Source: a virus
Taxonomy: Duplodnaviria > Caudoviricetes
Length of the DNA stretch: 53,421 nt
IMG/VR virus record: IMGVR_UViG_3300013126_002137
Location: 1-53,421 of that record
Strand: one strand, 5' to 3'
The number at the start of each line of letters is the position of its first letter. Position 1 is the first letter of the stretch. This document shows positions 2,449-3,503 of the stretch, piece after piece. Both the position numbers and the translations under genes were made by a program. The notes beneath the pieces were generated by a model. It saw nothing but the letters and a program-made list of their open reading frames with translations, was not told where the DNA came from and ran no database searches.

Positions 2449-2578
2449 GGGGGTGTTGAAATGTTAGATAAAATCACATTCTGCCTTTATGTTAAAAAGA
2501 ATGTTTGCAGCAAAAACAAATATTATTCACGCAAACTGTAAATTTGATAAAACGTTGGTGCAATTCCAGCCGCCCCCA
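2449..2578 (+). ncRNA. tRNA/tmRNA-like RNA with an internal CAGCAA stem and a Tyr-like anticodon loop
   Basis: Acceptor GGGGGTG/CGCCCCC-A, T arm GTTGG-TGCAATT-CCAGC, internal ACATTCT/AGAATGT stem followed by TTGCAGCAA, hairpin CAAA-CTGTAAA-TTTG. Confidence 0.65.
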
Positions 2579-2582
2579 CTAA

Positions 2583-2639
2583 GCATATTATAATATGCAA
2601 AAGACATAAAAAATAATATAAACGCATAATATAATATGC
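2583..2639. repeat. Two copies of the 16-bp palindrome GCATATTATAATATGC
   Basis: Perfect at 2583-2598, one mismatch at 2624-2639; partial copy GCATATTAT at 2440-2448. Confidence 0.8.
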
Positions 2640-2660
2640 AAATTTAAAAACTTTAAAATT

Positions 2661-2702
2661 ATGAAAACTTTTATCAACATTAAGCGAAAGAAAAAACGAT
2701 AA
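2661..2702 (+). CDS. Putative Lys-rich leader peptide MKTFINIKRKKKR
   Basis: ATG after an A/T-rich leader, 5 Lys codons, stop followed directly by hairpin 2703-2732 and then tRNA-Lys; not in the ORF track. Confidence 0.65.
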   Translation: MKTFINIKRKKKR

Positions 2703-2748
2703 GGCACTCGGCCTAAGCTGGTTACGAGTGTCAATAGGTAAACTATAA

Positions 2749-2820
2749 CCTCTCGTAGCAAACAAGTGTAGGCAACGGACTTTTAATCCGTGGGGTCTGG
2801 AGCGTTACCAGACGGGAGGA
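2749..2820 (+). tRNA. tRNA-Lys(TTT), atypical D and T loops
   Basis: CCTCTCG/CGGGAGG, ACGGA-CTTTTAA-TCCGT, T arm TCTGG-AGCGTTA-CCAGA. Confidence 0.85.
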
Positions 2821-2897: not shown

Positions 2898-3503
2898 ATG
2901 AAAGAATGTCCGAAATGTAAAAAAAATCATGATAAAAATGGTAAATTTTGTTCTAGGTCATGTGCTAATAGTAGAACGTGGACTGATGAAGATAAAATAA
3001 AAAAATCAGAATCAGCTAAAAAATCAGAAAAAGTTATTTTAAGTAATCAGAATAAAAGTAATGAAATTTATACTAAAATAGCTGAAACAAAAAAGAAAAA
3101 ACATAAAGAAAAAATATTAAATTCAGAATATTCTGAATTAAGTTTTGAATCATTAAGGTTTAGAATTTTATATGAACAAGACTGTAAATGTAATCGTTGT
3201 GGTTTAAATGAATGGTTAGGTAAAGATATACCCTTAGAATTAGAACATAAAGATGGTAATCATTATAATAATCAAAGGGAAAATTTAGAATTGTTGTGTC
3301 CTAATTGTCACGCATTGACGGATACTTGGAGAGGTAGAAATAAAACTAAAACTAGATTAACAATATCTGATGAAGAACTATTTAATGCTTTGATGACTAA
3401 TGATTGGAATATGAGACAAGCTTTATTAGATGTTGGGTTATCAGCTAAAGGTGGTAATTATAAAAGATGTCATACTTTAAAACGAGAATTTGAAAATTTA
3501 TAA
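2898..3503 (+). CDS. HNH homing endonuclease with N-terminal zinc ribbon
   Basis: CPKC...FCSRSC; LELEHKDGNHYNNQRENLELLCPNCH. Confidence 0.9.
   Translation: MKECPKCKKNHDKNGKFCSRSCANSRTWTDEDKIKKSESAKKSEKVILSNQNKSNEIYTKIAETKKKKHKEKILNSEYSELSFESLRFRILYEQDCKCNRCGLNEWLGKDIPLELEHKDGNHYNNQRENLELLCPNCHALTDTWRGRNKTKTRLTISDEELFNALMTNDWNMRQALLDVGLSAKGGNYKRCHTLKREFENL

Follow-up and report, generated by a model that had tools for sequence, protein, structure and literature searches.

How a phage might regulate the supply of a tRNA that it carries itself is the question raised by one end of a 53-kb fragment (53,421 nucleotides, ~30% G+C) of an uncultured virus of the Caudoviricetes, IMG/VR record IMGVR_UViG_3300013126_002137, the whole of which is termed ‘the window’ here. 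Nine tRNA genes are found on the plus strand within its first 3 kb (as identified by ARAGORN and by the Rfam tRNA model), and the last of these, a tRNA-Lys(UUU), is preceded by a very short, lysine-containing open reading frame (ORF) and by a hairpin that starts directly after its stop codon. An earlier note, made from the letters of the window, proposed that these parts form a switch, in which the position of a ribosome on the leader ORF would determine whether the tRNA matures. Comparison with other phages makes it appear probable, if only just, that the arrangement is a phage module in which the fate of a tRNA-Lys precursor is tied to the translation of a very short leader ORF with Lys codons, located on the same transcript. 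Its parts in the window are as follows:

2661-2702, plus strand: leader mini-ORF of 13 codons and a stop (2700-2702), encoding MKTFINIKRKKKR; from direct reading.
2703-2732, plus strand: hairpin (5' arm 2703-2713, loop 2714-2719, 3' arm 2720-2732), starting at the first base after the stop; from folds.
2721-2728, plus strand: ‘anti-tRNA’ stretch in the 3' arm of the hairpin, complementary to tRNA positions 4-11; from direct reading.
2749-2820, plus strand: tRNA-Lys(UUU) of a non-canonical type; from the Rfam tRNA model (ARAGORN gives 2749-2821).
2752-2759, plus strand: target of the anti-tRNA stretch, tRNA positions 4-11; from direct reading.

Direct reading bears out the layout that the earlier note had described. 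The mini-ORF ends 46 nucleotides (nt) before the tRNA-Lys, which starts at 2749; the hairpin arms at 2703-2710 and 2725-2732 follow the stop at once and pair over 8 base pairs (bp), one of them G-U, with RNAfold adding three inner pairs; and the stretch at 2721-2728 is complementary to 2752-2759 over 8 bp, again with one G-U. The absence of a U-tract terminator, also claimed, holds as well: no terminator-like site was called at 2703-2760, and the bases that follow the hairpin are A-rich, with no U-tract. A further proposed contact, between the hairpin loop (2711-2715) and 2735-2739, fared less well: a pairing of 5 bp with one G-U exists, but it lies outside the minimum-energy fold (in which 2734-2737 pair locally), and a loop base is missing in the closest relatives. 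A minus-strand intrinsic terminator, suggested by the T-rich run that follows the hairpin on the other strand, was considered and rejected, given that there is no convergent gene and that the plus-strand ORF carries a coding signature.

The tRNA at the end of this unit is itself unusual. It belongs to the Rfam tRNA family (RF00005; 32.6 bits against a gathering score of 29, with anticodon UUU), has no GG in its D-loop and has a T-loop unlike the usual one; its odd T-arm is shared with 41 viral stretches. Non-canonical phage tRNA-Lys genes of this kind (D-loop without GG, altered T-loop) constitute a family, numbered L002-L042 here, in which UUU and CUU isoacceptors both exist, and which may have been shaped to evade tRNA-targeting defences.

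When the RNA of the window is folded without constraint, the hairpin and the cloverleaf form side by side (-42.2 kcal/mol, z = -2.3 versus shuffled sequences). When the 12 nt immediately following the stop are masked, the minimum-energy fold joins the anti-tRNA stretch to the 5' strand of the tRNA and the acceptor stem is lost; only 2.7% of 300 shuffles match the number of base pairs formed with tRNA positions 1-16. The duplex between the anti-tRNA stretch and its target is predicted at -11.9 kcal/mol, compared to a shuffled mean of -6.0, and when the 3' arm was shuffled 2000 times an equally long contiguous pairing appeared in 0.95% of cases and an equally good duplex energy in 2%. Taken alone, the window is thus a source of modest support, and the weight of the argument rests on the comparison with other phages.

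That comparison begins with the family that contains the window (‘family A’), in which the unit is defined as a mini-ORF, a hairpin located 0-1 nt after its stop and then a tRNA-Lys. Syntenic relatives were located through a neighbouring 374-residue protein (80-87% identity), and two of these (L043 and L044) keep the 13-codon ORF, the hairpin right after the stop and the tRNA-Lys that follows, with closing pairs of the hairpin changed on both sides. A degenerate pattern for the ORF recovered nine stretches, all nine of which contain the unit; a search anchored on a structured RNA upstream of the leader alone, and blind to the ORF, recovered ten loci, with the unit present in nine and missing from L058. 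The hairpin of L057, one of the loci found via the upstream RNA, is wholly different in sequence from that of the window, and closing pairs are changed on both sides in L051 and L048. Looser, peptide-level scanning identified L109, in which two tandem units each precede their own tRNA-Lys, and added L125 (modules, including those at loci already known, were present in 11 of 76 stretches), and a metagenome scan provided two new modules (L322 and L323) among 56 stretches. A shorter peptide pattern matched 37 stretches, the only module among them being the already known L109. Collectively, the hairpins of family A comprise seven unrelated sequences, which in all versions start 0 or 1 nt after the stop and lie 9-16 nt from the tRNA-Lys. 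The leader peptides are MKTFINIKRKKKR, MKNSINIKRKIKR, MKTFINIKRKIKR, MRTIINIKNKRKR, MIKYNMIKRKRKR, MKTMKTEIKRKR, MKTIKRKYKR, MNNMVKIKRKCKR and MTTTTTIKRKSKR.

Two of these loci display additional RNA features. In L057 (minus strand), the interval between the hairpin and the tRNA-Lys at 1369-1445 contains a tRNA-Lys-like sequence with a UUU anticodon arm, no T-arm and no ARAGORN call. In L125, a region at 1366-1434, right after a run of four tRNA-Lys genes, scores 40 bits against a hepatitis delta virus (HDV)-like ribozyme model, just below its threshold of 44.

A second family (‘family B’), unrelated in sequence to the first, was discovered by surveying the tRNAs in the collected loci for a short ORF with a post-stop hairpin, with no requirement placed on the peptide. 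The first of its leaders were seen before the non-canonical tRNA-Lys(CUU) of L008, L029, L032 and L038. A pattern for the family B hairpin matched 113 viral stretches, of which 78 distinct contexts had enough flanking sequence; a 6-8-codon leader is present in 70 of these, and the first tRNA downstream is a tRNA-Lys in 70 of those 70 (62 CUU and 8 UUU). The remaining eight contexts are chance matches without a tRNA, seven of which also lack an ORF. Typical leaders encode MKRAKR, MKRSGKR, MKRKSRKL, MKPSGKR, MKASAKQ and MKTGKL. Several of the contexts show a textbook sigma-70 promoter (TTGACA-17-TATAAT), and most of the leaders are preceded, at a distance of 5-10 nt from the start codon, by a purine-rich sequence resembling a ribosome binding site, both features having been noted by eye and left uncounted. 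The hairpin is 100% paired in a four-member subfamily and 99.2% paired in the main branch.

In both families, the sequence of the leader ORF looks like one that is translated. When seven family A leaders are compared over their final eight codons, six conserved codons show no change at any of their 12 first and second positions, and four of their six third positions vary, synonymously every time (one further codon is hypervariable); the probability that four variable sites would all fall on third positions is ~0.005 by our own arithmetic. The arginine codons of family A leaders are CGN throughout, rare types relative to the AGA that the phage usually employs, and both of those in the window are the rare CGA, which accounts for 22 of the 441 Arg codons in the window's long ORFs. 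In the alignment of family B leaders, differences in ORF length are all 3 or 6 nt (55 of 55 rows).

The most constant element of the leader is a lysine codon near its end. The window's leader has Lys codons at 2664-2666, 2682-2684 and 2688-2696, and the one at 2694-2696, two codons before the stop, occupies the position kept in every version: it is found in all versions of family A and in 57 of 57 family B modules, in which codon 2 is also Lys. The last residue of the leader varies in the same 57 modules (R, L, Q, I or P). The sole feature common to both families is a Lys codon, one more codon, the stop and then the hairpin. An invariant Lys at this position fits a sensor of Lys-tRNA. The prediction that homologs would possess a Lys-containing upstream ORF is thereby borne out, in syntenic relatives as well as in distant phages.

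The association with tRNA-Lys was examined in a survey of 1044 distinct tRNA contexts, each having 60 nt or more of upstream sequence free of tRNAs, a sample that is biased towards Lys modules and in which other tRNAs on the same contigs serve as an internal control. A mini-ORF with a post-stop hairpin precedes 73 of the 103 tRNA-Lys in this set, and 64 of those leaders have Lys two codons before the stop. The 941 contexts of other tRNAs yielded 77 background matches, only two of which have the cognate residue at that position; the existence of analogous leaders before other tRNAs was therefore rejected.

A switch of the kind proposed also depends upon the 3' half of the hairpin having a second partner. 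When 9-12 nt after the stop are blocked, the minimum-energy folds of eight of nine family A versions pair the 3' arm with the 5' strand of the tRNA and break the acceptor stem, so that the fold that the earlier note anticipated under a ribosome footprint is reproduced in all but L057. This pairing beats that of shuffled arms in the window, L049, L051, L109a and L109b (0-3.3% of 300 shuffles). The hairpins also appear to be matched to their own tRNAs: in a test that used one module for each of the seven hairpin types, and that compared the free hairpin half to the tRNA region from -8 to +16, the own tRNA region was bound at a mean of -14.8 kcal/mol, versus -9.2 for the tRNAs of other modules (27 of 20000 permutations were as good), and the own tRNA ranked 1, 1, 1, 1, 2, 2 and 5. 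L125 and L323 share the same peptide and have different hairpins, and each of those hairpins ranks its own, different tRNA first.

In family B the corresponding target is displaced. The best duplex spans positions -3 to +2 of the tRNA, the site of cleavage by ribonuclease P (RNase P), in 57 of 57 modules, and beats 95% of shuffles in 24 of the 57. In the four-member subfamily, which precedes tRNA-Lys(UUU), the hairpin loop and inner 3' arm can form an alternative helix of 12 pairs with the spacer and the first bases of the tRNA; 47 of the 48 cells of this helix are paired, and three of its pairs are changed on both sides. Helices slid away from this register have 23-65% of their cells paired, and a covariation score as high as that of the helix arises in 13 of 500 shuffles. 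The target thus differs by family, falling at about tRNA positions 3-13 in family A (that of the window) and at the RNase P site (-4 to +3) in family B; the assignment of the target to the 5' strand of the acceptor and D-arm region, as initially made for the window, describes the former family and not the latter. The further expectation that the complementarity would be preserved in homologs is upheld in part, in that it is specific for the own tRNA and shows compensatory changes in one family B subfamily; in L048, L057 and L125 it does not exceed that of shuffles.

What this comparison of sequences establishes is the presence of three parts at a set spacing, together with the coding signature, the position of the Lys codon and the own-tRNA complementarity. 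Folding predictions indicate two mutually exclusive RNA pairings, and the choice between them would depend upon the position of the ribosome. During translation, the ribosome opens mRNA structure as far as ~11 nt beyond the first base of its P-site, hairpins form once they have been transcribed, and RNase P requires an unpaired leader together with an intact acceptor stem. In one state, the hairpin would form from the first base after the stop, leaving the tRNA free to fold and RNase P free to cut; in the other, the 3' half of the hairpin would lie upon the 5' region of the tRNA, preventing either the cloverleaf from forming or the 5' end from being processed. On reaching the stop, a ribosome would intrude 4-10 nt into the hairpin, unwinding its 5' arm and releasing the 3' half for the alternative pairing, and the released strand could then capture the 5' region of the tRNA, which is transcribed ahead of the tRNA 3' strand. 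A ribosome that awaits Lys-tRNA at the invariant Lys codon would instead abut the hairpin and leave it closed and, because the ORF is so short, would also bar further initiation. Scarce Lys-tRNA, whether caused by host anticodon nucleases or by the phage's own heavy use of Lys codons, would then promote maturation of the phage tRNA-Lys, with the opposite effect when Lys-tRNA is ample. This predicted outcome agrees with that of the earlier note and with trp-type attenuation, the tRNA's own acceptor stem standing in for the terminator.

We infer this ribosome geometry, and with it the direction of the switch and its read-out in folding or RNase P processing. Stated in full, as an attenuator with tRNA folding and RNase P processing as its output, used by phages of at least two unrelated lineages, in which a stalled ribosome licenses maturation and free translation shuts it off, the proposal may well be right, and is held tentatively, at slightly less than an even chance. 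The ribosome-dependent switch of the earlier note is partly supported, by a conserved unit, a hairpin, an invariant Lys and an own-tRNA complementarity; its loop pseudoknot is not supported, and its direction and output would be as described above.

Several observations weigh against a ribosome-operated switch on tRNA maturation. Sampling is biased, in that most loci were fetched with patterns derived from the module itself. The nearest relatives of the window's own tRNA-Lys (L004 and the L011 group) have no module and have unrelated sequence upstream. Part of the complementarity is generic, as positions 7-11 of the tRNA, the core of the target, are nearly universal in tRNAs. In three loci, duplexes with shuffled arms are not exceeded (L048, 18% by energy and 80% by contiguous run; L057, 36%; L125, 46%), and the blocked folds are not significant there either (11% for L048, none for L057, 21% for L125); in L057 the 3' arm of the blocked fold pairs with the next tRNA-Lys instead, and does so better than with the first. 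In most versions the free RNA folds as hairpin plus cloverleaf, and the ‘off’ state would consequently need to be kinetic, or to be fixed by decay. In most of family B the tRNA sensed would differ from the tRNA gated, the latter being a tRNA-Lys(CUU), which reads AAG and not the AAA that makes up most of the conserved leader codons. Covariation of the hairpin is minimal in the main branch of that family, because most of it, the outer stem, was fixed by the search pattern itself. Freshwater RNA-library contigs join the leader, the hairpin and the tRNA 5' end of relatives, each covering a small share of the query, and this support consists of low-depth assembled contigs that are possibly DNA carry-over. 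Finally, the hairpin of the window binds the canonical tRNA-Lys of its relatives at -17.5 kcal/mol versus -11.9 for its own non-canonical tRNA, for which reason the module in the window may be in a weakened form; a canonical tRNA-Lys gene is found after the hairpin in L043, L044, L049 and L051, and has apparently been lost from the window.

The alternative that survives best, and which is considered unlikely but by no means negligible, is that the switch is real and its read-out is a different one: transcription (via access for Rho or a pausing hairpin that the ribosome releases), the stability of the precursor, or a reversed polarity in which translation of the leader is needed for the tRNA. 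The anatomy of the switch supports two exclusive pairings and is silent on how they are read; the gap of 9-16 nt between hairpin and tRNA in family A is near the distance for hairpin-dependent RNA polymerase pauses; and the preference of the free RNA for hairpin and cloverleaf renders a purely thermodynamic ‘off’ state unlikely. However, the hairpin lacks a following U-tract or terminator-like site, and in all 57 family B modules and most of family A the alternative helix coincides exactly with the RNase P site or the acceptor strand, a position that points to processing or folding as the output. Reversed polarity, for its part, would constitute positive feedback on a scarce tRNA, with no obvious use.

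Less probable again, and rather improbable on the whole, is that the product of interest is the peptide: a small, basic species (for example RNA-binding or anti-defence) made together with tRNA-Lys, with the hairpin stabilising the 3' end of a mini-mRNA after RNase P cleavage or keeping ribosomes off the tRNA, and with the complementarity as a by-product. The coding signature of the ORF and its richness in Lys and Arg would be expected of such a gene, a 3' hairpin is a common stabiliser, and the complementarity is, as described above, not significant in L048, L057 and L125. Against this, the peptides have 6-13 residues and share only their Met, Lys 2 (in family B) and the Lys two codons before the stop, the rest varying freely; neither own-tRNA complementarity nor a compensatory alternative helix is expected from a mere stabiliser; and the strict link to tRNA-Lys and the placement of the hairpin 0-1 nt after the stop would each require a separate explanation.

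An element that acts purely as RNA, in which an untranslated leader hairpin chaperones or delays the folding of the tRNA or guides its processing, and in which the ORF is incidental to A-rich sequence, is very improbable. A-rich sequence does yield Lys, Asn and Ile codons unaided, and the lack of a recognisable Shine-Dalgarno sequence in family A would be in keeping with it, but an in-frame start and stop are conserved across unrelated sequences, third positions vary synonymously, insertions and deletions are in-frame only, ribosome-binding-like sequences precede the family B starts by 5-10 nt, and the leaders employ rare CGN Arg codons in place of the phage's AGA. Chance, in the form of a short ORF arising in AT-rich DNA, a fortuitous hairpin and a match of 8 bp to a near-universal tRNA 5' motif, which was initially favoured because the sequence upstream of the nearest tRNA relatives differs and the window's own features are only modestly unusual (1-3% of shuffles), was rejected as extremely improbable once syntenic relatives and distant phages were seen to have the module, the whole unit being conserved in many contigs of two unrelated families, always before tRNA-Lys.

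The coupling of leader translation to tRNA fate invites comparison with several well-studied forms of regulation. The leader attenuators of the trp, his, pheA, thr and leu operons of enterobacteria (see also PMC3082878 and PMC4046918) have a short leader ORF with cognate codons and pairings that exclude one another and are chosen by a ribosome. The phage unit has a short leader ORF with its own start and stop and codons cognate to the controlled pathway (the Lys position, with tRNA-Lys downstream in 70 of 70 cases), and exclusive pairings are predicted for it; the hairpin next to its ORF is the counterpart of the 1:2 stem, and the 3' half of that hairpin can pair with a third segment. In contrast to trp-type attenuators, its fourth strand is the 3' acceptor strand of the tRNA and there is no terminator or U-tract (every version has A-rich sequence after its hairpin, and an intrinsic terminator is absent as an output structure), and the product is a tRNA and not an mRNA. 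The sensing codon is also located just before the first stem and not inside it, and the leader has only 6-13 codons. The phage unit would work like a leader-peptide attenuator but lacks the terminator that defines that family, and its type of output would be new.

The translational attenuators of ermC, cat and cmlA are similar in that the post-transcriptional rearrangement of a hairpin is driven by a ribosome on the short leader that precedes it. In those systems, the hairpin hides a ribosome binding site and stalling is induced by an antibiotic, whereas the phage unit would mask the 5' end of a tRNA; no binding site of a downstream coding gene is sequestered in the window, where the tRNA follows the hairpin and the next ORF starts at 2898. 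T-box riboswitches respond to how well a particular tRNA is charged or supplied and act on genes of the same amino-acid system, but bind the tRNA directly, without a ribosome, and control genes for aminoacyl-tRNA synthetases or amino acids. An instance in which the loss of a tRNA is read out by ribosomes that stall in a small upstream ORF has reportedly been described for VapC4 and Cys codons by Barth et al. in 2021; that system controls downstream protein-coding genes in a bacterium, and the output of the phage unit would be the tRNA itself.

A possible use for such control is found in host defence. Phage tRNAs are discussed as counter-measures to PrrC and similar tRNA nucleases and to retron effectors in PMC10264068 and PMC11555353, and phage tRNA-Lys genes, some of them unusual in structure, are of the kind that would be expected to stand in for a cleaved host tRNA. 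The passages of the former that were examined, in which the word ‘leader’ does not occur, and the abstract of the latter make no mention of a leader ORF or of a switch that would govern the output of phage tRNAs. A connection to PrrC would be a plausible rationale.

The usual view is that transcription and decay, and not any sensing of how well a tRNA performs in decoding, determine how much of it is available. If the proposed mechanism is correct, this would be the first tRNA whose biogenesis is under feedback control by its own decoding activity, and leader-peptide attenuation would be extended to a non-coding RNA product. The module might further represent a built-in sensor of host defences that cleave tRNA-Lys, and would explain how phages dose this tRNA, the classic target of anticodon nucleases. 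It would also constitute a compact, Lys-tRNA-responsive sensor part of less than 100 nt and, given the ordinary sigma-70 promoters and ribosome-binding-like sequences of family B, should work in standard laboratory bacteria and in cell-free systems.

Searches outside the collected loci help to define the distribution of the module. In cellular genomes, the family A pattern gave at least 120 matches; 14 tRNAs were present in those listed, but no tRNA-Lys, and none of the listed matches was a module. The family B leader was found in no record of a collection of cultured phages, where a single record matched, on a tRNA; among phage records similar to the region of the window, none of the 30 matches listed covered the leader, a further 659 records lying beyond that list. 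Window positions 2583-2748 have no Rfam match at E<=1, and hence no assignment to the T-box or any other cis-regulatory family, and the leader and hairpin regions of L032, L166, L322 and L125 have none at E<=0.1. A full-text literature search, at the level of listings and abstracts, returned no paper on a leader ORF that controls a tRNA gene.

L004, L011 and a cultured cyanophage with a 48-residue ORF suggested a putative third family, with an ORF that contains Lys and continues into the tRNA; this was rejected, as such ORFs are common before all tRNAs; the Lys content of those that read into tRNA-Lys is 0.10, within the range of 0.01-0.12 found before other tRNAs. The cyanophage example (L327, positions 575-721, from Synechococcus phage BUCT-ZZ01) is an annotated, Lys/Arg-rich hypothetical protein of 48 residues whose ORF extends over the initial 21 nt of a non-canonical tRNA-Lys(UUU); the tRNA is not itself among the features annotated for that stretch of the record. 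The protein has no Pfam match at E<=1 and, as ORFs that read into tRNAs are common, may be an annotation artefact.

The region immediately upstream of the leader contains two further elements:

2449-2578, plus strand: conserved structured RNA of ~130 nt, just upstream of the leader; from a consensus fold.
2583-2639, plus strand: a pair of AT-rich palindromes of 16 nt each (2583-2598 and 2624-2639), lying 22 nt ahead of the leader start; from direct reading.

The structured RNA, which served as the anchor for the search described above, consists of a tRNA-like acceptor stem of 7-8 bp, a T-arm-like hairpin and two internal stems. Its consensus fold, based on six sequences, contains 26 pairs, three of which show compensatory changes, and its 3' end is present in ten viral stretches and in one metagenome contig. 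It matches no Rfam family at E<=1 and receives no ARAGORN call, and may set the 5' end of the leader RNA. A two-piece or permuted transfer-messenger RNA (tmRNA), composed of this RNA and the ORF, was rejected on the basis that ARAGORN calls no tmRNA, Rfam gives no tmRNA match and the acceptor stem closes before the ORF. In L044 (the same contig as L054), a minus-strand ORF at ~1476-2265 is inserted at the 3' end of the structured RNA, with ~17 nt of that end repeated on either side of the insert, in a manner that looks like an insertion of the homing-endonuclease type.

The palindromes are a candidate promoter or operator. Their 13-mer core occurs exactly twice in the window, and both are retained in L044/L054 and in L043/L048, where the sequence changes leave their palindromic symmetry intact; they are absent in L049-L053, L055 and L056, where the leader lies ~35 nt after the upstream RNA.

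Elsewhere in the tRNA cluster of the window, ~250 nt of non-coding sequence (2193-2448) separate a tRNA-Gly from the structured RNA and are partly conserved in L044 (~1255-1340). The tRNA called as Pro(UGG) at 1307-1395 is 89 nt long, with ~17 extra nt in its variable region, and scores only 33 bits against the Rfam tRNA model. Directly after the tRNA-Lys, a 201-residue ORF (2898-3503) partly resembles, at the DNA level, the HNH endonuclease genes of several phages.

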